From IMG/VR virus record IMGVR_UViG_3300044796_000596: a stretch of DNA of 64,000 bases; one strand, written 5' to 3'. Every line of letters starts with the position of its first letter. Position 1 is the stretch's first letter. The notes beneath the pieces are model-generated. The model did no database searches and was not told the DNA's origin. It saw only the letters and a program-made list of their open reading frames with translations. The translations under genes and the position numbers were made by a program. This DNA comes from an uncultured virus (IMG/VR IMGVR_UViG_3300044796_000596). Lineage: Duplodnaviria > Heunggongvirae > Uroviricota > Caudoviricetes. Positions 23,644 through 59,534 of this stretch are shown piece after piece.

Positions 23644-24513
23644 TCAGAACCGCAGCCCGAGCCAGCGCGGCCCGATCACGTCCTGCATCGGATGGAGGTA
23701 CGCCTCGCCGTTCGCGCGGACGAGCGGCTTCTGGAGGATTTGCTGCGGCCACGGATGCGCCGCGAGGTTCGGGAACGCCTGGCGGTTCGCGGCGAGCGTC
23801 ACCACGTCCTCGTCCGTCAGGATCCCCGGGTCGTCCGACTCCGTGAGACCCAGCGACCAGTGCGCGCGGTTGTAGCCCATGATCGACGCGCCGGCCTTCA
23901 TATCCTGCCCGTGCTGGTTCGCGTGCGCGAGCCCGAAGGCGTGCCCGATTTCGTGGATCAACGTCGACTGGAAGTGCTTGCCGTCGAGCAGATTGTTGAA
24001 CTCCATCTGGACGAAGCCACCTCCCGATCCGGGAGGTCCGTTGAACGTCCGGCCGCCGCCGAAGCACTTCACGCCGTTCTGACCGCAGGGTCGGTCGGGG
24101 TTCCGGATGACGAGCGCGACGAAGACCCGCCGAGACGTGTTCCGATCGTCGTTCCGCCAGGCAAGCAGATCCCGCGCCATCGCGTGCGCGCTATCCGGAA
24201 CGGACGCCTCCAGTTCCTGGGTCGTGAGCCGCGATCGGTAGGTGATCGGCCGCTCGATGGCGTAGGCGAAGGTGTCGATGCCGTTCAGCATCGTGCGGTA
24301 GCGGGCCTGCGCGAGCGCGAGGTGCGCCGCCATGAGCCCTGTCGCGCTGGCTTCGATCGCCGGGTCGAGGGCCGCCACGTCGCGGGGCAAGTAGAAGACG
24401 GGCGTGACGACGATGCGCTCGCCGATGCGCTGATGGTCGCGCTGGTGGTCGCGCTGGTGGTCGCGCTGGTGGTCGCGCGAGGGGTCGCGCGAGGGGTCGC
24501 GAGGCGCGGACAT
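23644..24513 (-). CDS. metzincin-type metallopeptidase
   Basis: HEIGHAFGLAH plus Met-turn SIMGY. Confidence 0.8.
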   Translation of the reverse strand: MSAPRDPSRDPSRDHQRDHQRDHQRDHQRIGERIVVTPVFYLPRDVAALDPAIEASATGLMAAHLALAQARYRTMLNGIDTFAYAIERPITYRSRLTTQELEASVPDSAHAMARDLLAWRNDDRNTSRRVFVALVIRNPDRPCGQNGVKCFGGGRTFNGPPGSGGGFVQMEFNNLLDGKHFQSTLIHEIGHAFGLAHANQHGQDMKAGASIMGYNRAHWSLGLTESDDPGILTDEDVVTLAANRQAFPNLAAHPWPQQILQKPLVRANGEAYLHPMQDVIGPRWLGLRF

Positions 24514-25028
24514 CAGACGCGCGCCGGAGCGTGGGCCGGGTGGTAGTGGCGCTCCGTGCCGCCCGTCTGGAACGTCAGCGGGTGCCCTGCGATGGGCTTG
24601 TCACACGCCGCGCAGGCGACGCTTCGGGCGCGCGTGCCGGGGTGCAGAAGTTCCTCGTAGGCGGCGGCGTTCAGGTGGGGCCTCGACGCCTCGACGCGCT
24701 CCGCGCGCGTGAAGTAGACAGACTTCCGGATGGTGTCCGCGTGCGAGCGACGCGCGCGGATCGCAAGGATCGACGCGTAGGAGATGTACTCCGACGTGGA
24801 CAGCCACGTCGGGTCCGTGAGCACCGACGCGAAGAACGCGAGCGCGCGGTTCTTCTCGTGCGCCCCGAACGTCTTCTCGTTCGGCACCTTGAGAATCTGA
24901 CCCGGCCTCGCGGCCGCGCGCGCGCCGTAGCCATCGGCAAGCAGTTCGGGGTGGTCGACCGTCGTCGAGTAGAACACCCGGTAGCCGACGATCGGGCCGT
25001 ACTCCTTGGTGGTGAAGCGGATGCCCAT
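24513..25028 (-). CDS. hypothetical protein with C-terminal CxxC-YHPxH tag
   Basis: Ends CAACDKPIAGHPLTFQTGGTERHYHPAHAPARV. Confidence 0.7.
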   Translation of the reverse strand: MGIRFTTKEYGPIVGYRVFYSTTVDHPELLADGYGARAAARPGQILKVPNEKTFGAHEKNRALAFFASVLTDPTWLSTSEYISYASILAIRARRSHADTIRKSVYFTRAERVEASRPHLNAAAYEELLHPGTRARSVACAACDKPIAGHPLTFQTGGTERHYHPAHAPARV

Positions 25029-25078
25029 GCCGCGAGATCGTATCGCCCACGGGCGCGACCCGCTAGTTCCACGTGGCC

Positions 25079-26428
25079 TCAGCGCTTTGCGCTCACCCGG
25101 TCCGCGAGCGCGAACACCATCTCAAGGGCCTGCCGGTAGTTCAGGCGTGGATCGCAGAGGCTCTCGTACCGGCGGCTGAGTTCGTCCTCCGTGATGCCGC
25201 CCCCGGTGCACTCGGTGACGTCCTCGCCCGTCAGCTCGAAGTGCACGCCGCCGAGGCGCGAGCCCTCTGCGGCGTGGACGTCGAAGCTCGTCTCGACCTC
25301 GCGCAGCACGTCCGCGAAGCTCCGCGTCTTGATCCCGCGTGCGGTGCATTGGGTGTTGCCGTGCATCGGGTCGCACACCCACAGCACCCGCCGCCCGAGC
25401 GCGTTGACCCCGCGGACGAGGGAGGGGAGCTTCTCGGCGACGTGCGCCGCGCCAACGCGCGTGATGAGGACGATCTTGCCGGGCGCGTCGCGCGGGTTGA
25501 GCTGCTCGAGCAAGCGGGCGACATCGGACGGCTCGGCCTTTGGCCCGAGCTTGACCCCGATCGGGTTCTCGACGCCCGCGAAGAAGGCGACGTGCGCGCC
25601 CGAGGGGTCGCGCGTGCGCTCGCCGATCCAGGGTAGGTGCGTCGTGAGGTCGTAGTAGCCCGGGAGGTGCGCGACGCGCTGGGTCTGCGCCGCTTCGTAG
25701 GGCAAGTGCAGCCCCTCGTGGCTCGTGAAGAACTCGACGCGCGTGAGGTCGTCGATGCTCGACTGCGTGACGGCTTGCATGAAGCGGAGCGCGTCGGCGA
25801 TGCGCTCGCTCGTGCGCACGTAGCTCGCGCGTAGATCCTCGGGCAGATCCGCCCGCGCGAAGAACGAGAGATCCCAGCGCTCCGGGTGGTGCAGGTCGGC
25901 GAATCCGCCCGCCGAGAGCGACCGGATGAAGTTCAGCGTCAGCGCCGCGTGGTGGTACGCACGGAGCAGCAACTCGGGCGCGGCGCGGCGCCGGTCCGGC
26001 GTGAACTCGGGGTGGTTCACGAGGTCGCCGAAGTACGAAGGCAGGGTGATGTCGCCGCGCGTCTCCGTGGCCTTGCTCCGCGGCTTCGCGTACTGCCCCG
26101 CGAGGCGCCCGACCCGGATGACGGGAAGCTTCCCGGCGTGGATGAGCACGAGCGACATCTGCAGCAGGATCTTGAGCTGGTTGGTGATCACGCCGGGGCG
26201 ACAGTCGTCGATGCTCTCGGCGCAGTCGCCACCCTGGAGGAGGAACCGGCGCCCTTCCTGCGCGTCGGCGATCTGGCGCTTCAGGCGCTCGACCTCCCAC
26301 GCCGTCACGAGCGGCGGGAGGGAGCGCAGATGGGCGCACGCGCGCGCCAACGCGTCCGCGTCCTCATAGACCACGGCGTGCGCGTTCGGGCGCGAGGCCC
26401 ATGCGTCCGGCGACCATTCGGGGTTCAC
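25079..26428 (-). CDS. class II DAHP synthase (3-deoxy-7-phosphoheptulonate synthase)
   Basis: LLQGGDCAES, GRLAGQYAKPRS, FFTSHEGL, WIGERTR, CDPMHGNT, Y.SLCDPRLN motifs. Confidence 0.95.
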   Translation of the reverse strand: MNPEWSPDAWASRPNAHAVVYEDADALARACAHLRSLPPLVTAWEVERLKRQIADAQEGRRFLLQGGDCAESIDDCRPGVITNQLKILLQMSLVLIHAGKLPVIRVGRLAGQYAKPRSKATETRGDITLPSYFGDLVNHPEFTPDRRRAAPELLLRAYHHAALTLNFIRSLSAGGFADLHHPERWDLSFFARADLPEDLRASYVRTSERIADALRFMQAVTQSSIDDLTRVEFFTSHEGLHLPYEAAQTQRVAHLPGYYDLTTHLPWIGERTRDPSGAHVAFFAGVENPIGVKLGPKAEPSDVARLLEQLNPRDAPGKIVLITRVGAAHVAEKLPSLVRGVNALGRRVLWVCDPMHGNTQCTARGIKTRSFADVLREVETSFDVHAAEGSRLGGVHFELTGEDVTECTGGGITEDELSRRYESLCDPRLNYRQALEMVFALADRVSAKR

Positions 26429-26447
26429 CGGAGCTACCCTCCTACCC

Positions 26448-27884
26448 CTACGACCATTTGCCCTCGGCCGTCTCGACAAGCGCATTGAGCGTCTCGCCGT
26501 AGCGGTCGGCCGCCTTTCGGACCTGCCGTTCCTTCCTCGCCATCGCCTTCAGCGGGAGCAGATCCTCGGTGACCTTGATGTGCTTCCCTTCCCGAACGAC
26601 GCTAGGAATCCCGTCGATCCCGTCGATCTCAAGGAGGTCGTGCCACCTTTCCTCGTCCGGCGCGTCGTAGATGTCCTCGCCATTGTCCCGCGCCATCTGG
26701 AGCGCGATCTCGGTCACGAAGGCCGCGAACGGCCGGTCGTAGTCGATCCGGTAAAGAAACGTCCCGACGCGCGGCGCGTCCCGGAAGAACCCGTAGCCGT
26801 GGATGTACGTCGCGTCCTGGTCTTCCAGGAACCGCTTGTCGTACACCACGAACGAGACGCCCTCCGGGTCGACGTACACGAGGATCTCCTTTGGCGCCTT
26901 GGCCTTGGGGACCTCCTCCGCGGGCGTGGGCGCGCGCTTCGCGACGCCGGCCAGGATGGCCTTCACACGGGCCTTGGAGAGCCTCCCCTCGCGGACCAGC
27001 GCCGAGTACCAGCCACGGGCGCCAAAGTCCCGCACGCGGTCGTTCCAGAGCGCCACGGCGTTGTCCTGGCCCTTCCGCGTGAAGCCCCCGCTCGTCATCG
27101 TCGGGTTTCGCTCGTACCAGAGCCAGCCGATGATCTTGCCGAGGCCCTTGCCGCGGTACTCCTGCGCCACCGTGAGCAGGGTCGCGCCCCACTCGTTCGA
27201 GGCGCGCGCGACCACGAGGCCGTCCCGGTTCACGATCGCGAGGTCGATGCCCTGCTCCGGCGTCTCTGCGCGCACCGTCATCGGCTCGCCCTTCACGACG
27301 ATCCGCTGGAGCACCACGGGGAAGCGCTCCTCGTTCGTCGCGGCGATCGACGTCATGATCGGCGTCATCTCGGAGAGGTACTTCACGCGCTGGAACGAGA
27401 CGATCCCGAGATCCTTCGGCTTCTGCCGGTTGTCGTAGATGTCGTAGACCACGCGCGGCAGGCTGTTCTTGAGGTGCGGCTTGTCGTAGTAGGCGACCCC
27501 ATCCCGCACGTACGCGATGAGCTTGCCCTCGCGCAGCATGCGCAGGCCACCGCGCACCTTCTGGACCGTCACCGCCTCGTCGGCGCGCCAGCCGGCGGTG
27601 CCCACCGTGCTCGCGTACTCCCGGTTCAACTGCGCAAGGTCGAAATCGTAGGAATCGGCGCCGTGCGACCTCCCCTCGGGGTTCCGGAAGTGCAGGAACT
27701 CGTCCCGCGTCATCAACCCGATCTCGGTCGGCGGAAACGAAGCGGGGGGTGGTCCTGCAACGCCAGCGACCGTCTCCGGCGCATGGCCCGGGTGGTAGCT
27801 CGTCTCGACGCCGCCCACCGTGAAGGTCACGGGCACGCCGCGGATCGCCTTGCCGCACGCCGCGCACGCCGCGCAGGTGCTCAC
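26448..27884 (-). CDS. CxxC-YHPxH-tagged protein with GNAT acetyltransferase-like domain
   Basis: N-terminal tag; LTVAQEYRGKGLGKII acetyl-CoA motif A; GTG overlapping the upstream stop. Confidence 0.7.
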   Translation of the reverse strand: MSTCAACAACGKAIRGVPVTFTVGGVETSYHPGHAPETVAGVAGPPPASFPPTEIGLMTRDEFLHFRNPEGRSHGADSYDFDLAQLNREYASTVGTAGWRADEAVTVQKVRGGLRMLREGKLIAYVRDGVAYYDKPHLKNSLPRVVYDIYDNRQKPKDLGIVSFQRVKYLSEMTPIMTSIAATNEERFPVVLQRIVVKGEPMTVRAETPEQGIDLAIVNRDGLVVARASNEWGATLLTVAQEYRGKGLGKIIGWLWYERNPTMTSGGFTRKGQDNAVALWNDRVRDFGARGWYSALVREGRLSKARVKAILAGVAKRAPTPAEEVPKAKAPKEILVYVDPEGVSFVVYDKRFLEDQDATYIHGYGFFRDAPRVGTFLYRIDYDRPFAAFVTEIALQMARDNGEDIYDAPDEERWHDLLEIDGIDGIPSVVREGKHIKVTEDLLPLKAMARKERQVRKAADRYGETLNALVETAEGKWS

Positions 27885-28747
27885 AGGACCTCGACGCTCT
27901 CGACGCGCACGTCGTCGGCGTTGAACACAGCGACCTCCGGGTGGCCTTCGACGAGGCCGCTTCCCAGGTACACGACGCTGTCGTAGCCCTTCGATCGCGC
28001 GGACCGCGCCTTCGCTCGGCTCGCGGTGACGAGCGGTCTCCGCACCTTCACCCGAACCGTGTAGATCCTCGGACGGTAGAGGTTCGCGTCGAGTCCGACG
28101 CGATCGATCACGTCGTAGATCCACGAAGGCGCCCCGGTGCTCTGGTTGAAGATGTTGACGAACCCCGAGTCGTCGCCGAGCGGCTTCGTCTTGCTGCCGA
28201 TGATGTAGCCAGCGAGGTCGCCGATCGCGTTCGGGTCCACGCCGAGGTGCTCGTCGAACGCCACGAGGTCGATCTGCCGCTCGCCGAGCGGTGGATCCTC
28301 GCGCCAGGGCCGGTGGCGTTTCCAGTACCACTCCCATCCGTCGGCCCCGTGCGTGTAGAGCGCCCGCAGGAAGGCCCCCGCGTTGGCATTCTTCGCGCTG
28401 AGATCGTCGATGATCGACGGCTCGAAGCCGATGTTCCGGTTCGCGAACGCGTACTTCTCCGCGATGCTCTTCGATGGCGTGAGGAAGATCCCGATGCCGT
28501 AGTAGTCGTTCACGAGCTCGCGGCGACTCTTGCCGAGATCGAACGCTTGAAACGATCGCGTCGTGCCGTGGTAGAGCGTCGCCCCTTCGCCTCGCAGGAG
28601 CGCTTTGATCTCGCGGTCCTCATCGTCGGGCAGCCCAACCACGCTCTCCGGCGCGTGCTTCGGGTGGTAGCTCGTCTCGACACCGCCGACCGTGAAGGTC
28701 ACCGGCGCGCCACGGATCGCCTTGCCGCACGCGGTGCACGTCGCCAT
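27881..28747 (-). CDS. CxxC-YHPxH-tagged ADP-ribosyltransferase-like (ART-PolyVal-type) protein
   Basis: LYHGT..F..F, GIFLT....AEKYA, GYDSV, EVAVF motifs. Confidence 0.75.
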   Translation of the reverse strand: MATCTACGKAIRGAPVTFTVGGVETSYHPKHAPESVVGLPDDEDREIKALLRGEGATLYHGTTRSFQAFDLGKSRRELVNDYYGIGIFLTPSKSIAEKYAFANRNIGFEPSIIDDLSAKNANAGAFLRALYTHGADGWEWYWKRHRPWREDPPLGERQIDLVAFDEHLGVDPNAIGDLAGYIIGSKTKPLGDDSGFVNIFNQSTGAPSWIYDVIDRVGLDANLYRPRIYTVRVKVRRPLVTASRAKARSARSKGYDSVVYLGSGLVEGHPEVAVFNADDVRVESVEVL

Positions 28748-28749
28748 GA

Positions 28750-31872: not shown

Positions 31873-32442
31873 TCAGGCGTGATACTTCGCGTGATGCTCG
31901 TGGTAGTGCTTCGTGGGCTGGCCCTCGGCCGAGAACGACACCGGGGTTTCGTCGATTGGGCGCATGCACGAGGCGCAGATCGGAGGCAGCGCCTTCCGGC
32001 GCTTCAACTCGTTGACGACCCGGTCGTACTCCCCGAGGCGGTGGTCGAACGACCGGACGGATTCGCCGCGCGCCCTGGTCACCTGCGCGCCGATGGCGAG
32101 GTAGCGAAGGCGCTCGAGGAGGTCCTCCGTGGACATGGCGCGTTCGGTCGCCTGCTTCGCGGACTTCGACGGCGTACCGAGGATGCGTGCCTCGATGGCG
32201 GCGAGTTCCTCCGGGCTCCGATCCTTCGTCCCGCGATGCGGTCCGAAAGCGAACGGGACCTTGATTTTCACGAGCCGCTTCCACTCGTCGGGGTCGGTCG
32301 AGATGGTCTTCGCGTACAACTTCGCCCAGCGGCGCGCGTTCGCGTAGTCGCCCGTGACGATCGCGTTGTGGAGGTAGGTGAGGCCCATGGCGCGGACGAG
32401 CGCCTTGGAAGGGCGGCCGTGCCTGGTGCGCGTCGTCATCAT
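31873..32442 (-). CDS. hypothetical protein with divergent C-terminal CxxC-YH tag
   Basis: Ends ICASCMRPIDETPVSFSAEGQPTKHYHEHHA. Confidence 0.65.
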   Translation of the reverse strand: MMTTRTRHGRPSKALVRAMGLTYLHNAIVTGDYANARRWAKLYAKTISTDPDEWKRLVKIKVPFAFGPHRGTKDRSPEELAAIEARILGTPSKSAKQATERAMSTEDLLERLRYLAIGAQVTRARGESVRSFDHRLGEYDRVVNELKRRKALPPICASCMRPIDETPVSFSAEGQPTKHYHEHHAKYHA

Positions 32443-32903
32443 CGGTCGTGCTCCTCAAGCCTTGAGGGCTTCTTGCTGTACGTGAACTTGTCGAGGTCCT
32501 GCTCCTCGCCTTCCTCTTCGTTCTCTTCGCGATCGTACTCTTCGCGCTCGTGTCCCGTGGAGCGCTCGAAGTCGCTCGGGGAGGGCATCCACCGCTGGCC
32601 TGCGCGAACGAGGCGGAAGCGAGCTTCCTCACCGGACCCCTCCACGTAGAATCCGTGATCCTTCTCGAATTGGAGCACCGCGTGGAACGCCTTGTGGGCC
32701 TTCCCCTTGAAGCGCTCGGGCAGCTCCCAGTTGTCCTCGATGACGCTGAGGTCATGCAGGATCGCGCGCGCAACAGGGTAGTCGCTCCCGTCGCCGCTCC
32801 GCTCCCACGAGTGGTAGGTGCCGTCGTACGGGCAGCGGTCGGGGTCGTTCAGAGGAAGGTCGGGGAAGGGCATGGGGAAGGCCATCAGAGACATCAGAGA
32901 CAT
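32439..32903 (-). CDS. hypothetical acidic protein
   Basis: Translationally coupled on both sides; GC3 bias. Confidence 0.55.
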   Translation of the reverse strand: MSLMSLMAFPMPFPDLPLNDPDRCPYDGTYHSWERSGDGSDYPVARAILHDLSVIEDNWELPERFKGKAHKAFHAVLQFEKDHGFYVEGSGEEARFRLVRAGQRWMPSPSDFERSTGHEREEYDREENEEEGEEQDLDKFTYSKKPSRLEEHDR

Positions 32904-34204
32904 CAGAGAGCCTGCATAAACGCCTGGAGCGGCTCCGGCAAGGGCTTGCCCCGCACGAACGCGAGGAAGCTCTCGGCGAAGTTCTCCTCCCAGGACTCGC
33001 CGCCGTAGGACGAGGCGAGCACCGGCCGGAGCTTGTGCTCGTCCTCGACCACGCGGAGATTGCCGCCGAGCCAGGAACGGGCAAGCGCATCGCGAAGCGC
33101 AGGCGCGACGGCATCCTCTCCAGCCTCGAACCGCCGCATCAGCGGCGCCGCCCGTGCGCGAAACTCCTCCTTCGCCTCTCCCTTCACAAAGCTCCCGAAG
33201 AAGATGTCCGCGTTCGGCGAGAGATCGACCGGCCCCTCGTTTCCGAAGTCGGGATCGTCACGGAAGCCCCGCAGCCGAGCGATGTACTCGTCCGCGAACC
33301 CAAGCCGGTCCCGAAGCTGGAAGAAGTGCTCGCGCACGTCGCCCACCGTCGAAAGCTGCACGAACCGCTCGCGCGCGTCGCCCGTGAGGATCCTCGTGTG
33401 GTAGCGGTGCCCGAGCTCGTGGATCAGCGTGTCGACGCTCGTGCGCGTGGGGGTCGCGTACATGCTGAGCGTGATCGTGTCCTTTGCCCCCTGGTAGGAG
33501 CCCGCGACGGAACCGCTGCTCCCGGGCCGCGGATCGTACGTCCCCTTCGGCCGGAGATCCTTCCGGACGTAGACCTTGCCGTAGAGCACCGCGGGGAACT
33601 TCGCCTGCACGAGCGCGGCCGCCTCCTCGAGCGTGCGCACGGCGTCCGTCGTGTTCTCGACGCCCTTCGTCGGGATGATGATGAACGCCCCGTGGCCGTG
33701 GCCGTGGCTCTCGTCCCGGTGCATCGCCTCGATCCTCGGGAGGTCCTCGCGAAGTTGGTCGAGGAGGTTCCTCACGGCGTACGCGTCAAATTCATGGCGG
33801 CGCCCGACGTGCTGGGCGATGGCGTAGAGCGTCTCCGCGAAGGACACGAAGACGTCCTGATCGTGTTGGTCGGCCGCGCCGAGCCACTCGGTGTGCACGC
33901 GCATCACCGGGTCGACCGTCCCGACGATCGTGATGCCGAACCGCTGCGCGAAGCTCTGGATCGCTTGGATTGCTTGGATCGCTTCCCTCGCCGCCAGCCC
34001 GTCCTCGGCGTCGAGGAGCCTCGCGATGCCGTCGAGACAGCCCTTGAGCCCCGTATCGCCCGTATCGCTCGGGTCTGAGGACGGTGGGCACGGTGGCGCG
34101 GCCCGCGGCGCGTGGCCGGGATGGTAGGCCACGGCCCCGCGCGCGAGCGTGAACGTCACCGGCTCGCCGGCGATGGACTTCCCGCACCGCGCGCAGATGG
34201 GCAT
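32903..34204 (-). CDS. CxxC-YHPxH-tagged zincin metallopeptidase
   Basis: N-terminal tag; LIHELGHRYH and SSYG..SWEENFAESF (lethal-factor/MPTase-like). Confidence 0.75.
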   Translation of the reverse strand: MPICARCGKSIAGEPVTFTLARGAVAYHPGHAPRAAPPCPPSSDPSDTGDTGLKGCLDGIARLLDAEDGLAAREAIQAIQAIQSFAQRFGITIVGTVDPVMRVHTEWLGAADQHDQDVFVSFAETLYAIAQHVGRRHEFDAYAVRNLLDQLREDLPRIEAMHRDESHGHGHGAFIIIPTKGVENTTDAVRTLEEAAALVQAKFPAVLYGKVYVRKDLRPKGTYDPRPGSSGSVAGSYQGAKDTITLSMYATPTRTSVDTLIHELGHRYHTRILTGDARERFVQLSTVGDVREHFFQLRDRLGFADEYIARLRGFRDDPDFGNEGPVDLSPNADIFFGSFVKGEAKEEFRARAAPLMRRFEAGEDAVAPALRDALARSWLGGNLRVVEDEHKLRPVLASSYGGESWEENFAESFLAFVRGKPLPEPLQAFMQAL

Positions 34205-34755
34205 CAGAGGAGCCCTCGCCATCGCGCGTCGCTGACGACTGCGTCGTACTCCGCCTTCGGCATGAACATGCGGACCGCGCAGTCGCCGCGGTAGTGCGCG
34301 GCGAGCGCCCGGTGGTTTCCATCGGTGACGTACGCCTTGCCCGAACGTCGCCACCCGCTGTAAACGGCGGTGCCAGGGGGGAACGGCCCTGTGCGCGCGG
34401 CGTAGGCGCGCGCTCGCGCCATCCTTTGCTCCGAGGATTCCTCCTCGCTCTGGTAGTTCAGGATGGAGAGCGGCAGTTCTGCCAGCACCCAGGCGCTTCC
34501 GTGCTCGACCACCCGACGTATCAGTGCTGGGTCCGGTGGCTCTCCGTGTCGACCCTCGCGATAGAGCTTCTGGTAGGACGCGAGCACATCGGAGAGGTCG
34601 TGCTCGCTCAGGATGCGCGGCTCGCACGTCGCGCCAGGCGCGACGGTCGCGGGTGCATGGCCCGGGTGGTAGCTCGTCGCGACGCCGCCCACCGTGAACG
34701 TCACCGGCTCGCCAGCGATGGACTTCCCGCACCGCGCACAGATGGGCGTGCTCAT
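34204..34755 (-). CDS. CxxC-YHPxH-tagged ParB/Srx-like domain protein
   Basis: N-terminal tag; YVTDGNHRALAA motif. Confidence 0.7.
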   Translation of the reverse strand: MSTPICARCGKSIAGEPVTFTVGGVATSYHPGHAPATVAPGATCEPRILSEHDLSDVLASYQKLYREGRHGEPPDPALIRRVVEHGSAWVLAELPLSILNYQSEEESSEQRMARARAYAARTGPFPPGTAVYSGWRRSGKAYVTDGNHRALAAHYRGDCAVRMFMPKAEYDAVVSDARWRGLL

Positions 34756-35699
34756 GATCCTGCCATGACCTTCTCGAATGCGGCGACCTTGTCCGCGCCG
34801 TACTCGGTCATCCCGAAGTTCGAGAGGGCGAACAGCTCCGCGAACGCTTCCCCTTCCGTCGTGCTGTACCGCGTGGTGATCCACTCGCTCTGGTCGAAGT
34901 CCACGGGAGGCCGATGGCGCATTTCGTACCTGTGCCCGAGCTCGTGCACGATCACGTACGCGAGGCCGCCGTAGCGCGAGCCGCCCTTCTCGATGCGGCC
35001 TCCCGGCGTGGCCCGGATCCAGAGCGCATCGTCCGCGCGGTGGTAGCGGCCGCTCGCCGTGCCGCGAAAGTCCTTGGGGCCCGCGAAGACCACCTTGATC
35101 CCGCCCGCAATGGCCTTTTTTCGCCAGCCGTGAAGCGACGCGAAGACGTCCTCGAGGGTCGCGATCATGTCGTTCAGCCGAGCGTCGCTCGCGCCCACCA
35201 TGTTCACGTAGGTGTTCTCGCCGAGCGTCCTCTCACGCAGGATCGTCGTCCGCTTCCCCTCGGCGGTGAAAAGCTCGACCCACCGTGGAAGCGCCTCCAA
35301 GACAGCGCTCCCCGCCTGGCCCCCGTACATCCTGGCAAATGCGCCAGGCACCGCGCCGCCGTGCTCGGCCCACGCCATGCCCCTCCAGAAGCGGTCCACG
35401 TCATCCTTCTCGCGCTTGCCGCCCTTCGGCGTCCGGTCCCAAAAGAAGTTCTTGAGGACCCAGGCACGAAACGCGGCGACGTCCCGCGGCGACGGGCTCT
35501 CTGGCGCATCGAGCAACTTCCGAAAGCGCTCGGTGAACTCCCCTTGAAGTCCCGGCGTGCCAACGCGTGGCTCGCACGTCGCGCCAGGCGCGACGGTCGC
35601 GGGCGCATGGCCCGGGTGGTAGCTCGTCGCGACGCCGCCCACCGTGAAGGTCACCGGCGCGCCGGCAATCTCCTTCCCGCAGTGCGCGCACGTGGCCAT
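34752..35699 (-). CDS. CxxC-YHPxH-tagged zincin metallopeptidase
   Basis: N-terminal tag; IVHELGHRYE, TRYS..EGEAFAELF; TACGAT 7 nt upstream. Confidence 0.75.
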   Translation of the reverse strand: MATCAHCGKEIAGAPVTFTVGGVATSYHPGHAPATVAPGATCEPRVGTPGLQGEFTERFRKLLDAPESPSPRDVAAFRAWVLKNFFWDRTPKGGKREKDDVDRFWRGMAWAEHGGAVPGAFARMYGGQAGSAVLEALPRWVELFTAEGKRTTILRERTLGENTYVNMVGASDARLNDMIATLEDVFASLHGWRKKAIAGGIKVVFAGPKDFRGTASGRYHRADDALWIRATPGGRIEKGGSRYGGLAYVIVHELGHRYEMRHRPPVDFDQSEWITTRYSTTEGEAFAELFALSNFGMTEYGADKVAAFEKVMAGS

Positions 35700-35776
35700 G
35701 CGCACGATCGTATCATCCTCGCGCCAGGTCGTCGTCGCAGACGAGGCACGGCGGAGAGAGTACCGCCCGGGCCTGA

Positions 35777-40014: not shown

Positions 40015-40176
40015 GTAGAAGATCGTACATGGCCGCGGGCCCTCCAGCTAGAGAACCGCAAAACGTTGCAGAGCAAATACCGTTCCACACGGCATTTTTG
40101 CTTGTTTTGTATTCCGTGGCGGGACCTTGCATTTCACCCCTTGCGGCGGAGGCAAACCCCGGGGTACTCGTATTAC

Positions 40177-50926: not shown

Positions 50927-50963
50927 GACGACGGCTCCCAGGAGAGTGTAGGATCGGAGGGCC

Positions 50964-52954: not shown

Positions 52955-53050
52955 GTGGCAAGAGTCTGTGCGCCAGATGGCACGTGTCAAGCGCCATGCG
53001 AATCGCGAAGGAGGCAACGGCGGACGACGTAGGATACGATCTCGGGCACG

Positions 53051-54367
53051 ATGCAGTCGCTCAAGGAGATCACCGCGATGCTGCTCGCTCCGAAGGCGCT
53101 TCCGGCGCCAGGGGTGCAGACGTTCGTGGTGCCCTCCCCCACGCTGGAGCCACCCGTGCGGAAGAAGCTGTCGCTCAAACTCCTCGAGCCCGGGGCTGCG
53201 GGGGGCGAGGGCGAGACGCGCCGGGAGCGCGCCGTGCGCCTCCGGGCCGAGTACCCGTCGCTCTCGTACGACTTCGCGCCGTCCCCGAGCGACGAGGCCG
53301 TCGATCCGTTCTCGTACGACATCATCATCGTGGCGTTCTCGGGCGGGAAGGACTCGCTCGCGCTGCTCCTGCTTCTTCTCGAGATGGGCGTGCCGAAGGA
53401 CCGGATCGAGCTCTGGCACCACGACGTGGACGGGCGCGAGGGGTCCACCTTGATGGACTGGCCCTGCACGCACGACTACTGCCAGAAGGTCGCCGATGCG
53501 CTCGGAATCAAGCTCTACTTCTCCTGGAAAGTCGGCGGCTACGAGCGAGAGATGACCCGCAACCTCGCACCGACCGCGGAGTACCGCTACGAGGTGCCTG
53601 GCGGTCGTGTCGAACAGAGTCGCGAACCCGACGAACGAGCGAACCGCGCGGCCCGGTCGGAGTACGTGAGCGTCTACGGGGAGGGCGACCCCAAGCAGAG
53701 CGGTGAGGAGGCGATCCTCGCCGCGAAGCGCGCCAAGCTCGGCTACCGCATGGTGTTCCCTCAGAAGGCCGCTGACCTGAAAGTACGATGGTGCAGCGCC
53801 TACGTGAAGATCATGGTGTGCGACTCGGCGCTTGCGAACCAGGGACGGTTCAAGGGCAGGCGAACGCTGGTCCTTACGGGCGAGCGCGCCGAGGAGAGCG
53901 CTGGGCGCGCGAAGTACGCCATCTTCGAGCCCGACCGCGCCGATCTTCGCACGGGACGAACGCCGAGGCACATCGACCACTGGCGCCCCGTGCTGCACTG
54001 GCCAGAGACCGAGGTCTGGAAGATTATCGATCGCTATCGCGTGAACGCGCACCCGGCGTACCACCTTGGATGGGGCCGCGTGTCGTGCGCGCCGTGCATC
54101 TTCGGCAGCCCTGACCAGTGGGCTTCGCTCCGCGTCGTGAACCCGGAGCAGTTCAACGAGGTCGCGGCCTATGAGACGAAGTTCGGCAAGACGATCGACC
54201 GCAAGTACGACATCAACGAGATGGCGGAGCGCGGGAGCCCCTTCGCGGGCATGACGGCGCGGTGGATCAAGGCGGCGACGTCGCGCGAGTACACCGAGCC
54301 CGTGTTCGTGGATCCGTGGGATCTGCCGAGCGGCGCGATTCTGGGCGATGGCAGCGGACCGACGTAG
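53051..54367 (+). CDS. PAPS-reductase-family PP-loop protein
   Basis: VAFSGGKDS, RWCSAYVK, GERAEES..RA, HPAY..GWGRVSCAPC. Confidence 0.85.
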   Translation: MQSLKEITAMLLAPKALPAPGVQTFVVPSPTLEPPVRKKLSLKLLEPGAAGGEGETRRERAVRLRAEYPSLSYDFAPSPSDEAVDPFSYDIIIVAFSGGKDSLALLLLLLEMGVPKDRIELWHHDVDGREGSTLMDWPCTHDYCQKVADALGIKLYFSWKVGGYEREMTRNLAPTAEYRYEVPGGRVEQSREPDERANRAARSEYVSVYGEGDPKQSGEEAILAAKRAKLGYRMVFPQKAADLKVRWCSAYVKIMVCDSALANQGRFKGRRTLVLTGERAEESAGRAKYAIFEPDRADLRTGRTPRHIDHWRPVLHWPETEVWKIIDRYRVNAHPAYHLGWGRVSCAPCIFGSPDQWASLRVVNPEQFNEVAAYETKFGKTIDRKYDINEMAERGSPFAGMTARWIKAATSREYTEPVFVDPWDLPSGAILGDGSGPT

Positions 54368-54385: not shown

Positions 54386-54751
54386 ATGAGCGACATGAAG
54401 AGCTACAAGGTGCTGGTCGGCGGCGAGGGCCAGGCGGGACTCGTCCTGGCGTCGGATCCCGAGGAGGCCATCCGCCTCTGGCGACAGGCGGGCAAGGGCC
54501 GGGCGAACACGAAGAACGTGACCGCCATCGCGTCTGCGTCGGACGCGCACGCCCGACTCCTCGCTCACGCGGAGCTCTTGGCGGCGCTCATCGAGGCCGC
54601 CAGCGCGCACGGTCGCGCGTTCGGGCCCGAGCACGAGGTTGGCGATCTCCAGGAGATTCTCCGGACGTGCTGGAACAAGCTCTCGCCGTCTCAGCAGCGC
54701 TCCGTGTACAACCATCACCAGGAGATCGTCGAAGAGTGGGGCGAGGACTGA
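54386..54751 (+). CDS. hypothetical protein
   Basis: SD GGGAG; GC3 bias. Confidence 0.55.
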   Translation: MSDMKSYKVLVGGEGQAGLVLASDPEEAIRLWRQAGKGRANTKNVTAIASASDAHARLLAHAELLAALIEAASAHGRAFGPEHEVGDLQEILRTCWNKLSPSQQRSVYNHHQEIVEEWGED

Positions 54752-54755
54752 CCCG

Positions 54756-56330
54756 ATGAAGTCCCTGCGCGCTCTCACGGCGAGGCTCCTCGGCACGATC
54801 GACGTCGACGTCGAGGACGAGGTCGAGGACGCCGACGCGATGCCGTCGAGCGGCCCTCCGCGCACGCTGCTCTCGCTCTTCGATCACTCGGGCGAGTGGT
54901 CGCGGCCCTTCGCCGAGGCCGGCTGGAACGTGCTCCAGGTGGATCTGAAGCACGGGGACGACATTCGCCAGTTCTCGGCGAAGTGGCTCCTCGAGAACGT
55001 GCTTCAGGGCTACGACACCATCGACGGGATCCTCGCCGCGCCTCCCTGCACGGACTTCACCGTGAGCGCCGCGCGACACTGGAAGAAGCAGGACGCCACC
55101 GGGAGCACGGCGTGCTCCATCGAGCTCGTGCGGCAGACTCTGCGAACGGTCGACTTCTTGAAGCCTGCCTTCTGGGCCATCGAGAACCCGGCCGGTCGGA
55201 TCGCCGCCTTGGTGCCCGGCGTCGGCGGGCGAAAGATGGTGTGGGATCCGTGCGACTTCGCCGGCTGGACATCCCCGACGGCGAAGGATCTCGCGAGGCT
55301 TGAGAAGCTCCGCAAGAAGAACCTGCACGCGGGCGACACGTTCTCGAAGGAGGACGTGGACCTCGTGAAGCGGATCAACGCCTACACGAAGCGAACGGTG
55401 CTCTACGGCGACTTCAACGCGCTTCAAAAGCGCCGGATCGAGCCCGTCAACACGAGCAAGTGGGGATCGTGGCTCCAGTCGCTCGGGGGCAAGAGCGCGA
55501 AGACGAAGGAGCTTCGGTCGGTCACGCCGGCCGGCTTCGCGCGCGCGTTCTACGAGGCGAACAAGAACCGCCGGTACGTCGAGGACGTCGAGGAGAAAGA
55601 GCGGTCCACGCGGCGGCCGCCGACCTCGGCGACAGGCAAGCCGCCAACCACGAGCGCTCGGCAGGCGACGCTCGTCCCGGCGACGCCTCGCTCGACGACG
55701 CCGGGGTTCGTGGTCTACGGGATGCCGACCGCGACGTGCACGCGCAAGGTGCTGCTCGCGCTCGCCGAGAAGGGCCAGGAGGCGACCTTCGTCCTGGTCG
55801 ATCTCGCGAAGGGCGAGCACAAGCAGCCGGCGCACCTCGCGCGGCAGCCCTTCGGACGCATCCCCGTGCTGGAGCATGGGAGCTACCGGCTCTACGAGTC
55901 CCGCGCGATTCTCCAGTACCTCGACGTGATCCTGAAGGGCCCGAGCCTCACGCCTGCATCGCCGGAAGCGATGGGCCTCATGGCGCAGTGGATCAGCGTT
56001 GAATACTCGTATTTCGCGCCCGCCGCGCAGACGATCTTCATGGAGATCCTTTGGGGGGACCGTTCGCAGGGCGACATGGCGAAGGTCGTCGAGGGCCGGG
56101 CGGGCGTGGCGGAAGCCCTCGACGTGGTGGACGCGTGGCTTGGCGAGAGCGGCAAGCCCTACCTCGGTGGGGACGCGTTCTCGCTTGGGGACATCTGCTG
56201 GATGCCGGGCATCGAGAACCTCTTCCTGTGCGGACAGGGCGATCTCATCATGAGCCGAGCGCACGTGGCCGCCTGGTGGACGCGCGTGAGCGCGCGGCCG
56301 ACATGGAAGAAGGTCCTCGCGGCTCGATAA
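54756..56330 (+). CDS. phage-type C5 cytosine methyltransferase fused to glutathione S-transferase
   Basis: LSLFD.SG, AAPPCTDF, AIENPAG, YTKRT, RSVTP.GFA; then GST motifs QPFGRIPVL, LYESRAILQYL, YLGGDAFSLGDI in the same frame. Confidence 0.8.
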   Translation: MKSLRALTARLLGTIDVDVEDEVEDADAMPSSGPPRTLLSLFDHSGEWSRPFAEAGWNVLQVDLKHGDDIRQFSAKWLLENVLQGYDTIDGILAAPPCTDFTVSAARHWKKQDATGSTACSIELVRQTLRTVDFLKPAFWAIENPAGRIAALVPGVGGRKMVWDPCDFAGWTSPTAKDLARLEKLRKKNLHAGDTFSKEDVDLVKRINAYTKRTVLYGDFNALQKRRIEPVNTSKWGSWLQSLGGKSAKTKELRSVTPAGFARAFYEANKNRRYVEDVEEKERSTRRPPTSATGKPPTTSARQATLVPATPRSTTPGFVVYGMPTATCTRKVLLALAEKGQEATFVLVDLAKGEHKQPAHLARQPFGRIPVLEHGSYRLYESRAILQYLDVILKGPSLTPASPEAMGLMAQWISVEYSYFAPAAQTIFMEILWGDRSQGDMAKVVEGRAGVAEALDVVDAWLGESGKPYLGGDAFSLGDICWMPGIENLFLCGQGDLIMSRAHVAAWWTRVSARPTWKKVLAAR

Positions 56331-56469
56331 AACGGATTCAGGGTCCGGGGTCCGGGGGGTCCGGGGTCCGTGGTGGGTCCGTGGTGGGTCCAGGGTGGGG
56401 ATCGCCGTGTCTCGCGGAGGCCGTGCTTGTCCCGACGCTCACGCGGAAATCTTGGGATAAGATCCTTGC

Positions 56470-56853
56470 ATGGCTCCGCCGAAACGACCCGCAAAGCCCG
56501 CGCGCGGCGCTCGTCAGGTCGCGGACGACGACACGGGGACGCTCGACGCGGGGGCGATCACGAAGCGCCTCACGAACACGTGGGAGGTCCACACGAAGCT
56601 CGCCGAGCAGCTCGCCACCGAGCTCGACGCGGCCGAGCGCGACGTGCGCGCCACGCGCCCCGACCGCGCGGCCTTCCTGCGCGGCCTTCGGCTCTCGCTC
56701 CGCTACTTCGTGGACCGCTTCGGCCAGTGGACGACGGACAAGTCGATCGCGTTCGAGGACAAGAGCCGCGACCTCCAAGAGTTCCAGATCGTGCGCGATG
56801 CGGTGATGGCGCTCCTGAACCTCCCCGCGACGCCGACGCCGAAAGCCACGTGA
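56470..56853 (+). CDS. hypothetical protein
   Basis: TAAGAT 6 nt before the ATG; GC3 bias. Confidence 0.6.
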   Translation: MAPPKRPAKPARGARQVADDDTGTLDAGAITKRLTNTWEVHTKLAEQLATELDAAERDVRATRPDRAAFLRGLRLSLRYFVDRFGQWTTDKSIAFEDKSRDLQEFQIVRDAVMALLNLPATPTPKAT

Positions 56854-56931
56854 AGCAGTGGCGCATCACCGCGGACATCCTCGAGTTCTACGAGGCGCAG
56901 AGCGGCCCTCAAGGCTGACCCAAAGGAATCA

Positions 56932-58044
56932 ATGGCATCGCTCAAGGGAATTACGGCCATTCTCGTCGCGCCTCCGAGCGAACCTGCGCCCGCACCGTCG
57001 AAGCGGTGCCGGCTCAAGACGGCGACGACGGACGCTGGAGATCCGGTCATGCCGGACCTCGCGAGCTACGACTTTGTGATCGTCGCCTTCTCGGGCGGCA
57101 AAGACTCGCTCGCGTGCCTCCTGCACCTGCTCGACCTCGGCGTTCCGCGCGCGAAGATCGAACTCTGGCACTACGACGTGGACGGGCGCGAGGGGTCGAA
57201 CCTCTTCGACTGGCCGTGCACGCGCGACTACTGCCGGAAGTTCGCCGCCGCGTTCGGGGTGCCCATCCGCTTCGGGTGGAAGGTCGGCGGCATCGAGGGC
57301 GAGATGAACCGGGACGATGCCCCGACAAAGCCCACCCGCTTCGAGACGCCCGAAGGCGCGATCGTCGAGATCGGCGGCGATGGACCGCCTGGAACCAGGC
57401 TCAAGTACCCTCAGCCGGCCGCGGACCTCACCGTCCGCTGGTGCTCGGCGTACGCGAAGATCGACATCGCTTCCAAGATGGTGACGAACCAGGACCGCTT
57501 CCTCGGCAAGCGCACGCTCATCGTCACGGGGGAGCGCGCGCAGGAGTCCGCGAACCGCGCGAAGTACGAGCCCTTCGAGCCCGATCGCGCCGACCGACGC
57601 GAGGGTAAGCGTGCGCGCCGGCACGTCGACCACTGGCTTCCGGTGCACGGCTGGTCGGAGCACGACGTCTGGAACCTCATCGAGAAGCACCGGGTGAATC
57701 CGCACCCGGCGTACCGTCTCGGCTGGTCGCGCGTCTCGTGCGCGGCGTGCATCTTCGGCGACGAGCACCAGTGGGCGAGCCTCCGGTGGGTGAACCCACG
57801 GCAGTTCAAGCAGCATGAGGCGTACGAGGCGCGCTTTGGCCGATCGATCAAGCGCCCCGTGCACCGGAAGCGCGACAACCGGCACCTCACCGTGCTCGCG
57901 TCGTGGGCCGACGTCGGGACGCCCTACGAGATGGAGACCGCGGACATCGGCGCGGCCATGTCGCACACGTTCGACGAGCCGATCATCGTCGAGACGTGGA
58001 CGCTCCCGCGCGGCGCCTACGGGCACTCGTGCGGCCCGACGTGA
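56932..58044 (+). CDS. PAPS-reductase-family PP-loop protein (paralog of 53051-54367)
   Basis: VAFSGGKDS, RWCSAYAK, GERAQES, RVSCAAC; ends GPT like its paralog. Confidence 0.85.
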   Translation: MASLKGITAILVAPPSEPAPAPSKRCRLKTATTDAGDPVMPDLASYDFVIVAFSGGKDSLACLLHLLDLGVPRAKIELWHYDVDGREGSNLFDWPCTRDYCRKFAAAFGVPIRFGWKVGGIEGEMNRDDAPTKPTRFETPEGAIVEIGGDGPPGTRLKYPQPAADLTVRWCSAYAKIDIASKMVTNQDRFLGKRTLIVTGERAQESANRAKYEPFEPDRADRREGKRARRHVDHWLPVHGWSEHDVWNLIEKHRVNPHPAYRLGWSRVSCAACIFGDEHQWASLRWVNPRQFKQHEAYEARFGRSIKRPVHRKRDNRHLTVLASWADVGTPYEMETADIGAAMSHTFDEPIIVETWTLPRGAYGHSCGPT

Positions 58045-58073
58045 CCGATGTCTGATGTGATAGGATCCGGTCC

Positions 58074-58475
58074 ATGGCCAGGCCGACCAAGCCCACGTCC
58101 ACCTGCTCAAGGTGCGGGAAGGACATTCGCGGCGAGCCCGTGACGTTCACCGTGGACGGCAGGACGCTCCACTACCATCCGGCCCACGCGCCCACGGTGG
58201 CTCCGGGGAAAGAGACCGAGCTCGACCGGCTCGTTCAAATGTCGAACAGGCTCGGTCGTGCGCGCTTCCTCGTCGTCATTCACGCCCGCGGTAAGGATCG
58301 CATCGGGACGATCGATCCATCGTTGGATGGAGCGCGGGCGTGGGCCGAGCGCGAAGTCGCGGAGGGCTACGCCGACACCGCGTTCATCGTCGACAAGGAC
58401 CTGCGCCAAGGCGCCCGCGGCGTCGTCTGGCGGTCGGAACCCGCGACCATGAGCGAGACGTTAGAGCCCGGCTAG
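58074..58475 (+). CDS. CxxC-YHPxH-tagged hypothetical protein
   Basis: CSRCGKDIRGEPVTFTVDGRTLHYHPAHAP. Confidence 0.7.
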   Translation: MARPTKPTSTCSRCGKDIRGEPVTFTVDGRTLHYHPAHAPTVAPGKETELDRLVQMSNRLGRARFLVVIHARGKDRIGTIDPSLDGARAWAEREVAEGYADTAFIVDKDLRQGARGVVWRSEPATMSETLEPG

Positions 58476-59155
58476 CGCATCCGCTTCGGGCGCTCGTCGA
58501 TGATCCACGCCGGGACGTGCGTCACGCCGTTCTCACGCCAGAAGTGCACGCGGTGGTTGCCGTCCCACAGTTCGACCTTTCCGGTCTTGTCGATGTGGAC
58601 CTCGGGCACCGGGAAGCCGCCCCGCCGCATCGAGAACTCGCTCCAGTCGTACCCACCGCCCTCTTGCTCATGGACCTCGGTGCTCTCACACGAGGGGCAT
58701 GTCCGCGGTCCGAACCGCCTGCCCTTGAGGAAGGCAGCCTCCTCGTCGAGGTGCCCGCAATCCGCGCACTCGAAGAGCTTCTCGTCTTCCTCAGCGAGTT
58801 TTTCGTCGAGGTACTCGATCGGCACGTAGCCCTCGTAGATCGAAGCGCTCTTCGGGAGCCTGCTCCGTTCCTTCGCGTGGCGCGCGCGGACCTGCGCCTC
58901 GTCCACACGGGCCACGCCCGAGTCGTAAAGGTCCGTCTTGGCGAAGTCGTACTGCGGGAGCTTCGCGCCATCCCAGCTACGCGGCATCTTCTCAAGCGCG
59001 GCACGCCGGATCCGTTCGTCTACGGGACGCGCTGGCGTTGCGAGGGTGACCCCCGTCGGCGCGTGGCTCGGGTGGTAGTAGGCCGCCTCGCCGTGGACCT
59101 CGAAGGTGACGGGCACGCCGCGGATTGGACGCTGGCACTTCGCGCACGTGGGCAT
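58472..59155 (-). CDS. CxxC-YHPxH-tagged ParB/Srx-like protein with inserted Zn ribbon
   Basis: Tag; CADC...CPSC; LWDGNHR...GVTHVPA. Confidence 0.7.
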   Translation of the reverse strand: MPTCAKCQRPIRGVPVTFEVHGEAAYYHPSHAPTGVTLATPARPVDERIRRAALEKMPRSWDGAKLPQYDFAKTDLYDSGVARVDEAQVRARHAKERSRLPKSASIYEGYVPIEYLDEKLAEEDEKLFECADCGHLDEEAAFLKGRRFGPRTCPSCESTEVHEQEGGGYDWSEFSMRRGGFPVPEVHIDKTGKVELWDGNHRVHFWRENGVTHVPAWIIDERPKRMR

Positions 59156-59534
59156 GCGCCCGATCGTACCATCGGATCTGCCCGTGGGAAGTTCCTAAAG
59201 CGCGGCGCGCTTCGCGTCCCAAGCGATGCTCGTGCTCGACGTCGACCTTGAAGTGATCGCCGAGTAACCTCAGCCACGGAGCCAGATCCGCGCCTTGGTA
59301 GCCGCCGTCGAACGCCGCCATCTCGACCTGACCTGCGGGGTCCGTCGCTTCGATCAACTCCGTGCGCACGAGGATCTCCAGTTCGCCGAGCGCAACCTGG
59401 ACTTCTTTCTCGTGCGAAAGGAGCCTGGCGCGCGCGGGCGCGTGCCCCGGGTGGTAGTGCGTGAGCTTGCCGTGGACCTCAAAGGTGACGGGCACGCCGC
59501 GGATTGGATGCTGGCACTTCGCGCACGTGGGCAT
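58992..59534 (-). CDS. CxxC-YHPxH-tagged hypothetical protein (3' end overlaps the next gene, possibly degenerate)
   Basis: MPTCAKCQHPIRGVPVTFEVHGKLTHYHPGHAP. Confidence 0.55.
   Translation of the reverse strand: MPTCAKCQHPIRGVPVTFEVHGKLTHYHPGHAPARARLLSHEKEVQVALGELEILVRTELIEATDPAGQVEMAAFDGGYQGADLAPWLRLLGDHFKVDVEHEHRLGREARRALGTSHGQIRWYDRAHAHVREVPASNPRRARHLRGPRRGGLLPPEPRADGGHPRNASASRRRTDPACRA

Follow-up and report, generated by a model that had tools for sequence, protein, structure and literature searches.

LIM-type zinc fingers follow the consensus C-x2-C-x16-23-H-x2-C and are paired, with a LIM domain consisting of two contiguous fingers and eight ligands, while TRASH fingers have the ligand pattern C-x2-C-x19-22-C-x3-C and PARP-type fingers are spaced C-x2-C-x28-30-H-x2-C. 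Here we describe a segment of ~30 residues with the ligand pattern C-x2-C-x20/21-H-x2-H that is carried as a tag by 10 open reading frames (ORFs) in a 64,000-nt stretch of DNA (the window) from an uncultured virus assigned to the Caudoviricetes (IMG/VR record IMGVR_UViG_3300044796_000596). The tag is almost certainly a real portable domain, and it probably has a common docking function for the otherwise unrelated proteins, or cargos, to which it is attached.

Two described systems bear on such an arrangement. The first is that of the capsid-targeting signals of phages T4 and P1, which in the available text of one report are short peptides, namely the IPIII signal of T4 and residues 1-30 of P1 DarB; the DarB segment was sufficient when joined to a reporter, and BLAST found no consensus among the N-termini of the P1 Dar proteins (PMC9024508). 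The second is that of the polyvalent proteins, which the available portion of Iyer et al. (2017) presents as early-acting enzymes delivered with the DNA, with 2-15 domains in each polypeptide (PMC5512222).

A conserved tag on ten ORFs

The original prediction placed a shared motif at one end or the other of ten proteins, and a regular-expression scan of all six frames, together with translation of the ORFs, confirmed every one of the ten at the predicted end. Eight ORFs carry the tag at the N-terminus (minus-strand starts 27884, 28747, 34204, 34755, 35699, 59155 and 59534; plus-strand start 58074), and two minus-strand ORFs, 24513-25028 and 31873-32442, carry it at the C-terminus, the second in the divergent form HYHEHHA (Table 1). 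The ten copies served to build a hidden Markov model (HMM), and when every stop-to-stop piece in the six frames of the window was searched with it, the same ten came back at 60-73 bits, with the next best piece at 6.3 bits. At the DNA level, the back-translated pattern P-[VL]-T-F-x8-Y-H-P-x-H-A-P is found at 9 sites in the window against 0.00 expected from 100 shuffles. The tags lie in real coding sequence, because their codons, with a G+C content at third positions (GC3) of 0.85-0.95, match the real genes of the window in codon-position G+C.

Nine residues (C4, C7, I11, P15, F18, Y27, H28, H31 and A32) are invariant in 10/10 window copies, and six of these (C4, C7, I11, P15, H28 and H31) are invariant in the 21 tag sequences from the window and other contigs; the second knuckle is H-x2-H in 21/21. 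Two types can be told apart. Type A tags end in YHPxHAP, are nearly always N-terminal and near-neutral (net charge 0 to +2), and are mostly attached to enzyme-like cargos, with no further conserved Cys or His pair following the single C-x2-C...H-x2-H unit. Type B tags (CHHCKKPI...HYHxHHAxHH) are mostly C-terminal, basic (up to +4) and His-rich (7-9 His), and are found on small proteins without a known family.

Modularity and evolution of the tag

DNA identity between tagged genes is high only within the 90-nt core of the tag and drops to background where the core ends, with the additions that 34755 and 35699 also share ~30 nt of linker and that 59155 and 59534 also share ~45 nt of promoter. 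The cargos of close tag pairs are unrelated and share nothing else or very little, and the tag is likewise the only part common to the 227-aa and 183-aa proteins. Linkers of 10-25 residues, in which Pro, Ala and Gly are often abundant, follow the tag. Between distant tag pairs, identity of codons for the same residue is at the level expected from codon usage (10/20 versus 11.4, and 8/16 versus 9.3) and the residues are kept; because synonymous sites are saturated while residues are retained, most tag copies are taken to be old and under purifying selection. This saturation rules out recent copy-paste of a DNA cassette as a general explanation.

Adjacent genes present a different picture from distant ones, in that the pairs 28747/27884, 34755/35699 and 59155/59534 have the same codon at 21-22 of 24-27 positions versus ~14 expected, with 27884/35699 similar. 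Furthermore, the 34755 tag is a mosaic, its 5' half matching 34204 and its 3' half and linker matching 35699. These comparisons point to occasional gene conversion or recent exchange among tags, mainly in neighbouring genes. Both the exchange between neighbours and the mosaic tag would suit a segment that gene conversion or duplication disseminates and that its carriers simply tolerate, without any function in common. We regard this as very improbable, given that synonymous sites are saturated and yet nine residues remain invariant in the window and six across contigs, that the family persists on other contigs with the same ligands, and that its fold is confidently predicted.

Comparison of the cargos with annotated phages indicates how the tag came to be attached to them. 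Seven tagged proteins (t27884, t28747, t34204, t35699, t34755, t59155 and t31873) were searched whole, and 3/7 have phage homologs, all three without the tag; t24513 and t58074, also searched against annotated phages, gave no match. Untagged gp377 of phage Atu_ph07 is 40% identical to the 478-aa protein over residues 47-478, a region that also matches SCTP-2. The ART protein, over its residues 46-288, is 53% identical to an ORF of the uncultured phage LR745208.1 that carries no tag and has no Cys at its N-terminus, and a stand-alone ORF of LR745208.1, likewise untagged, is 29% identical to the 433-aa HELGH protein over residues 135-433. The only database relatives of these three cargos are in phages of 440-490 kb, and because the huge-phage homologs are untagged, the tag was evidently grafted onto pre-existing huge-phage genes in the lineage of the window.

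Fold and family relationships

AlphaFold2, run with an alignment of 21 tag sequences, gave a model with a mean pLDDT of 90.9 in which a knuckle is followed by a beta-hairpin at residues 16-20 and 23-27, the CxxC knuckle preceding the hairpin and the HxxH knuckle coming after it. On this model the tag is a predicted treble-clef finger in the TRASH/LIM neighbourhood, nearest to TRASH and to LIM finger 1, with Cys4, Cys7, His28 and His31 as the predicted ligands of a zinc ion. Of the earlier description as a portable CCHH zinc module, the portability, the ligand pattern and the unrelated cargos are borne out, and the binding of zinc is inferred. A complex prediction with two tag copies and Zn scored 0.06 against a mark of 0.42, which counts neither for nor against tag-tag binding.

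Structural searches place the tag in a broad class of fingers. Foldseek returned no match to the model at E<=0.001; its best geometric fits were to PINCH1 LIM4/5 (rmsd 1.3 A, 30 columns, TMq 0.65), to paxillin LIM2/3 and to L24e, PHD and MutM fingers. LIM chains superimpose on the model with an rmsd of 1.3-2.3 A over 30-32 residues, at Foldseek E>1 and at Z 3.0-3.4 with VIA, a second and independent structural aligner, for which ZZ, C1, LIM, L24e and PARP fingers were all tied at Z<=3.5. Among PDB sequences the best match of the tag profile was PINCH LIM4 (E=0.0035, first knuckle only), with further profile matches to LMO2 and FHL2.

These structural neighbours include PARP-1 Zn1/Zn2 on DNA (Z 3.2), the MutM zinc finger and the rRNA-binding L24e, and the tag could be a tether that, like PARP-type, Fpg/MutM and L24e fingers, anchors enzymes on DNA or RNA, be it the phage genome, host DNA or a transcript. 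Consistent with a tether, the type B tags at C-termini have a basic, His-rich character and occur in small proteins rich in Lys and Arg, and ParB-like, helix-turn-helix (HTH) and SprT-like zincin proteins often act on DNA. The N-terminal type A tags are, however, near-neutral, the structural matches are tied with those of the protein-binding LIM, ZZ and C1 fingers and do not discriminate, and the conserved non-ligand residues I11, P15, V16, F18 and Y27 look like a core rather than a basic surface, all of which makes the tether unlikely.

At the level of sequence families, 0/21 tag segments reached any gathering score in a per-segment Pfam scan, and the sub-threshold neighbours (E<=1) were TRASH (5/21), DUF7576 (3/21) and LIM (3/21). 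The best segment matched DUF7576 (PF24461; gathering 27 bits) at E=8.4e-6, with full-length P0017, a tagged protein from outside the window, at 22.4 bits. For LIM (PF00412) the best segment reached E=0.081, and full-length P0010 scored 15.9 bits versus a gathering score of 22.9; for TRASH (PF08394) the corresponding values were E=0.0043 and whole-protein matches of 12-15.9 bits versus 27. The zf-PARP model gave no Pfam match at E<=1, and the tag spacing is 20-21. The tag family is uncatalogued, belonging to the generic treble-clef class and to no curated family, in agreement with the original prediction, which had recognised no described family for it.

That TRASH-type families are the nearest in Pfam by count suggests another role, in which the tag is a metal sensor, a metallochaperone, a redox switch or a folding or stability cap that regulates each cargo separately, as has been proposed for TRASH. 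The extra His residues around the second knuckle would fit such a role, as would the presence of two tagged HExxH zincin-like proteins and of a third, metzincin-like gene apparently coupled to a tagged ORF. Against it, most cargos (ART, GNAT-like, ParB-like and HTH) have no evident need for metal delivery, flexible linkers and placement at either end argue against intimate control of different folds, and the second knuckle is HxxH and not the CxxxC of TRASH; regulation of this kind is accordingly a poor candidate, less probable than a nucleic-acid tether.

Distribution of the tag beyond the window

The window belongs to a phage-like contig of 174,839 bp. Five further tagged proteins (P0006, P0017, P0021, P0034 and P0035) are recorded on a contig of equal length, presumably this one, so that at least 15 tagged proteins appear to be encoded in one genome. 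Other contigs, of 65 kb, 104 kb and 42 kb, carry P0010, P0012 and P0030. In the five proteins attributed to the contig the tag is N-terminal once and C-terminal four times (P0017, P0021, P0034 and P0035). P0006 consists of the tag and an HTH domain, and in a PHROGs scan of 16 outside proteins it alone had matches, which were to HTH families.

When 5.8 billion proteins were searched by word index with the tag profile, 9 were returned, seven of them the window's own, together with P0006 and P0004, the tagged ortholog of the 433-aa protein, which sits on a 3.7-kb contig. Exhaustive HMMER searching of 1.84 billion cluster representatives gave 26 matches at E<=0.001, 14 of which span the whole tag, and among the 26 was one genuine bacterial LIM protein with a partial match (E=8e-4). 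Eleven long proteins in this set were put aside as chance or repeat matches on the basis of the match table alone, in which they have 2-11 stretches each and a best stretch of 11-18 profile positions. With a broader tag profile the total was 16 proteins, now including P0033-P0037 and, at E=7e-3, a leupaxin-like LIM protein of an insect.

A peptide pattern for type B tags located a 1,068-bp metagenome contig, L002, with two adjacent tagged ORFs, one of which has an internal tag (Table 1). An ORF fragment upstream of the tagged ORFs on L002 has the motif CHSGQDRS, with no Pfam match at E<=0.01, which we take to resemble the Cys-x5-Arg phosphatase signature. The DNA pattern for type A tags was present in 0 metagenome contigs, and the contig of the window itself was likewise not among the matches of the metagenome scans. 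No tag match was obtained in the IMG/VR scans, nor did megablast of 12 kb of the window against phages give a match, and when 50,697 phage records were searched by tblastn with just the tag as query, the only matches were partial ones at E>=3. It had been proposed that the idea of a distinct tag would fall if its profile matched a generic finger of the LIM/PARP type found on housekeeping proteins; the profile does graze LIM and TRASH, but the tag is a member of neither, and there was no tag match in GTDB, represented by one genome for each of 185,579 prokaryote species. Outside the window's contig the tag family is very rare, with about a dozen proteins in billions, and it is confined to a few large high-GC phage-like contigs.

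Tagged genes and their cargos

In none of the tagged proteins is more than one cargo domain recognisable (Table 1). Of the labels originally given to the cargos, ART stands, as ART-PolyVal passes its Pfam cut-off, while GNAT and one ParB_N are leads from a protein atlas, with atlas scores of 0.90-0.91 for the 478-aa protein and TM 0.5-0.62 to ParB_N clusters, which is under the tool's bar for naming a family, for the 183-aa protein. The second ParB/Srx label comes down to a DGNHR motif, and the two zincins to HELGH motifs and sub-threshold matches. The two HELGH proteins have motifs in common with each other and with the LR745208.1 ORF, with no peptidase family at threshold. The full-length fold of the 315-aa HELGH protein, predicted from a 3-row alignment, has a mean pLDDT of 39, with tag residues 1-30 at 71-81, and its assignment as a zincin stays at the level of the motif because the model is unusable for a fold search. 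No meaningful match came from phmmer searches of four cargos against PDB sequences, PADLOC and NCBIfam gave only matches of E>=7e-4 for 17 proteins, and the Pfam models MPTase-PolyVal and DdrB-ParB had no match at E<=1 in the tagged proteins. The C-terminal half of the product of ORF 31873-32442 resembles P0031 and P0023, from other contigs.

Table 1. Tagged ORFs and other features of the window and of contig L002
Feature	Position	Strand	Evidence or remark
171-aa ORF, N-terminal domain of no known family and C-terminal tag (24519-24620)	24513-25028	-	63.6 bits; GC3 0.85-1.0
478-aa ORF, N-terminal tag (27771-27875) and phrog_29287 cargo (8e-104)	26448-27884	-	GNAT-like is a lead only
288-aa ORF, N-terminal tag (28646-28747) and ART-PolyVal	27881-28747	-	PF18760 35.9 bits, cut-off 31.2
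189-aa ORF, domain of no known family and divergent C-terminal tag (31879-31986, HYHEHHA type)	31873-32442	-	60.3 bits
433-aa ORF, N-terminal tag (34103-34204) and HELGH...ENFAE zincin-like cargo	32903-34204	-	motif and HMM
183-aa ORF, N-terminal tag (34645-34749) and ParB_N-like cargo (lead only)	34204-34755	-	protein atlas
315-aa ORF, N-terminal tag (35595-35699) and HELGH...EAFAE zincin-like cargo	34752-35699	-	YgjP-like E=0.039
133-aa ORF, N-terminal tag (58095-58196) and cargo without known family	58074-58475	+	72 bits; TAGGATC box 7 nt before ATG
227-aa ORF, N-terminal tag (59054-59155), internal CxxC...CxxC zinc ribbon, C-terminal DGNHR motif	58472-59155	-	Zn_ribbon_8 E=0.012, HVO_0649 E=7e-4
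180-aa ORF, N-terminal tag (59430-59534) and ~65 more coding-looking residues	58992-59534	-	71 bits
L002 ORFs (331-882 with internal tag)	1-327, 331-882, 886-1068	+	
Sigma-70 family gene, 1,210 aa	18276-21908	+	N-terminal HNH-endonuclease PHROG match (3.9e-22), then sigma regions 1.2, 2, 3, 4
Sigma-70 family gene	21954-23522	+	adjacent to the preceding gene
Untagged metzincin-like protein	23644-24513	-	HEIGHAFGLAH; Peptidase_M10 4e-4
Class II DAHP synthase, full-length	25079-26428	-	PF01474, 2.6e-175
Three PAPS-reductase-like genes; DNA methyltransferase with a fused glutathione S-transferase domain	53051-54367, 54756-56330, 57049-58044, 59461/59563-60768	+	
TA(C/G)GATC box, examples	5856-5862, 18112-18118, 25036-25042, 35706-35712, 40021-40027, 59162-59168, 59541-59547	-	
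TA(C/G)GATC box, examples	50949-50955, 53035-53041, 58061-58067, 59551-59557	+	
Tandem repeat upstream of gene start	11006, 11756, 62653, 61866, 17516, 38446, 14592	-	ctggaactgaa x4 before 11006; ~11-nt gatcaa-containing unit x5 before 62653
Tandem repeat upstream of gene start	51039, 50314, 49813, 42416	+	

One tagged ORF, 58992-59534, has a coding signature for approximately its first 100 codons, after which GC3 is 0.5-0.65, and its overlap with the next tagged gene amounts to 164 nt; its 3' part is probably non-coding. The last ~80 codons run through the promoter and start of that next tagged gene, and the ORF may be a decaying duplicate or contain an assembly error. The ATG of the untagged metzincin-like gene overlaps the stop of tagged ORF 24513-25028, an arrangement that suggests translational coupling of the two.

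A proposed shared address label and its possible destinations

The argument for docking draws on several properties of the tag together, because it is a terminal, linker-joined and self-folding finger with strict conservation of apparent core and ligand residues, is attached to many unrelated proteins in one genome, and is found in one small phage clade. A docking domain of this kind would give all cargos one common binding partner, and a changeable set of enzymes would in this way be delivered to a single place. The leading candidate for that place is the assembling capsid or the ejection apparatus, in which case the cargos would be injected together with the DNA, and the arrangement would be a non-covalent counterpart both of polyvalent proteins and of capsid targeting as known from T4 and P1.

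The virion is the leading reading for the destination of the tagged cargos, if a tentative one, and is favoured because of the listing of untagged gp377 in a virion table, which is the one experimental datum on the destination and an indirect one, the ART-PolyVal domain, the mostly N-terminal placement of the tag and the precedent of the T4 and P1 signals. The Atu_ph07 homolog of the cargo of ORF 26448-27884 is FDI40_gp377, with a computed mass of 49.72 kDa versus a listed mass of 49.73 kDa, and the available part of the Atu_ph07 report includes Gp 377 in its virion mass spectrometry data (Table S5) at 49.73 kDa, with 6 unique peptides and 16.7% coverage (PMC6102473). The ART-PolyVal domain (PF18760) belongs, in the available text on polyvalent proteins, to proteins that are predicted to be packaged (PMC5512222). 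Furthermore, 8/10 window tags are at the extreme N-terminus, which is where the signals of P1 DarB and T4 lie in the available account of them (PMC9024508). 

A number of observations weigh against loading into the virion. Tags are also found at the C-terminus (2/10 in the window, and in P0017, P0021, P0034 and P0035) and internally (L002 331-882), unlike the known capsid-targeting peptides, and P0006, as a tagged HTH protein, does not obviously look like an effector that would be packaged. The neighbours of the tagged genes encode DAHP synthase, methyltransferases and PAPS-reductase-like proteins, with no recognisable head genes beside them, and the TA(C/G)GATC promoter box of tagged genes is common to untagged genes. 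Inspection by eye found no conserved protease site after the tag. Atu_ph07 gp377 is present in virions without any tag, and the proteome in which it was listed, as far as the available text describes it, comprises 131 proteins from PEG-purified particles and may include contaminants (PMC6102473).

Several of these points would be accommodated by docking to a hub outside the virion. This could be a single host machine, for example RNA polymerase, the ribosome or a nucleoid protein, or else a complex in which the phage replicates or transcribes its genome, and the enzymes would be concentrated on one target. The data on modularity, selection and expansion apply equally to such a hub, and the tagged genes adjoin two phage sigma-factor genes and lie among non-structural genes. 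LIM-type fingers are protein-protein interaction modules, and placement at either end together with a tagged HTH protein fits a recruitment domain better than a packaging peptide. The presence of gp377 in Atu_ph07 virions points to the particle, however, and the non-virion hub is rather doubtful, somewhat ahead of a nucleic-acid tether. Returning to the virion, the most specific form of the proposal is that a folded zinc finger acts at either end of a protein as a universal 'postcode', docking 15 or more host-takeover enzymes to one particle hub for injection, with the set reshuffled by tag exchange; taken as a whole this is somewhat doubtful, less likely than the virion destination by itself.

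Genome context

The window has 68% G+C, and most of its predicted proteins are without a family. Among those with a family are a minor tail protein rich in repeats (phrog_13352, 4e-77), two proteins of the sigma-70 family, three PAPS-reductase-like proteins and DNA methyltransferases, with a CHAP domain protein just under the cut-off (Pfam E=1.7e-5). The window was treated as part of a large uncultured phage because of these phage-type families, the 174,839-bp contig and the relatives of its cargos in huge phages. The host is probably a high-GC bacterium, a weak inference from base composition, leaderless-looking promoters and one weak match to a mycobacteriophage tail protein.

The gene for class II DAHP synthase, which lies inside the tagged-gene cluster, is an unusual auxiliary metabolic gene for a phage. 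The PAPS-reductase-like and methyltransferase genes flank the second tagged group and may constitute a DNA-modification module.

Two kinds of short element precede genes of the window. The TA(C/G)GATC box occurs at 17 sites versus 5.6 expected, a number reached in 0/100 shuffles, and in most cases lies 5-10 nt ahead of a start codon. This position suggests leaderless promoters of a common class, which sigma factors encoded by the phage itself may recognise. A promoter specific to tagged genes was considered and rejected, as the box precedes 5/10 tagged genes but also untagged genes at 5849, 18103, 40014 and 53051. The position of the box suggests a start at 50964 for the gene called at 51039 and at 59563 for a PAPS-reductase-like gene. 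Many window genes also have a short tandem direct repeat that extends right up to the start codon, in 2-5 copies of a 7-12-nt unit that differs from gene to gene.

Comparison with known systems

No description of such a module was found in the available literature on LIM, TRASH and zinc-finger modules in phages and on capsid-targeting sequences. What is new is the zinc-finger family; that diverse effectors may share a targeting element was already known. If the tag is an address label, it would be the first case found of a conserved, folded and recognisable targeting domain common to many cargos of one phage. The genome sequence would then by itself single out proteins, mostly of no known function, that are delivered or localised together, and would show how such a set evolves as tags are grafted and converted between genes. 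Being small, the tag could also be used to load foreign proteins. If the postcode proposal holds, it would be a portable tag for phage-mediated protein delivery, and the tags would amount to an evolvable, non-covalent replacement for giant polyvalent proteins. Even apart from function, a new zinc-finger family is a testable handle on uncharacterised huge-phage genes.

Among finger families, the tag is like LIM in the order and spacing of CxxC...HxxC/H, in an Ile three residues after the second Cys and in an aromatic residue before the His, and differs in being one finger with four ligands, in having His as the last ligand, and in being phage-borne and used as a terminal tag. With TRASH-type fingers (PF08394 Arc_trans_TRASH, PF24273, zf-FCS and DUF7576, of the L24e fold) it shares the first knuckle, CxxCGK-x-I, and a hairpin of similar length, but its second knuckle is H-x2-H, and it is found on phage enzymes rather than on metal-resistance or archaeal regulators.

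Among delivery systems, the likeness to polyvalent proteins as described in the available text (PMC5512222) lies in the ART-PolyVal domain confirmed in the tagged set, with zincin-like and ParB-like domains suggested by motifs only. The tagged cargos differ in being separate genes, each with the same small tag and with no more than one recognisable effector domain. The 'distributed polyvalent system' first proposed for this locus holds as an analogy: one polyvalent-type Pfam domain is confirmed, whereas the huge-phage homologs are stand-alone genes. The capsid-targeting signals of T4 and P1 DarB are similar in principle, in that, according to the available text, a short N-terminal element can send different cargos into the phage head for co-injection (PMC9024508). 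In contrast to those signals, the tag is a conserved, folded zinc finger on at least 15 proteins, at C-termini as well as N-termini, with a role in packaging that is predicted.

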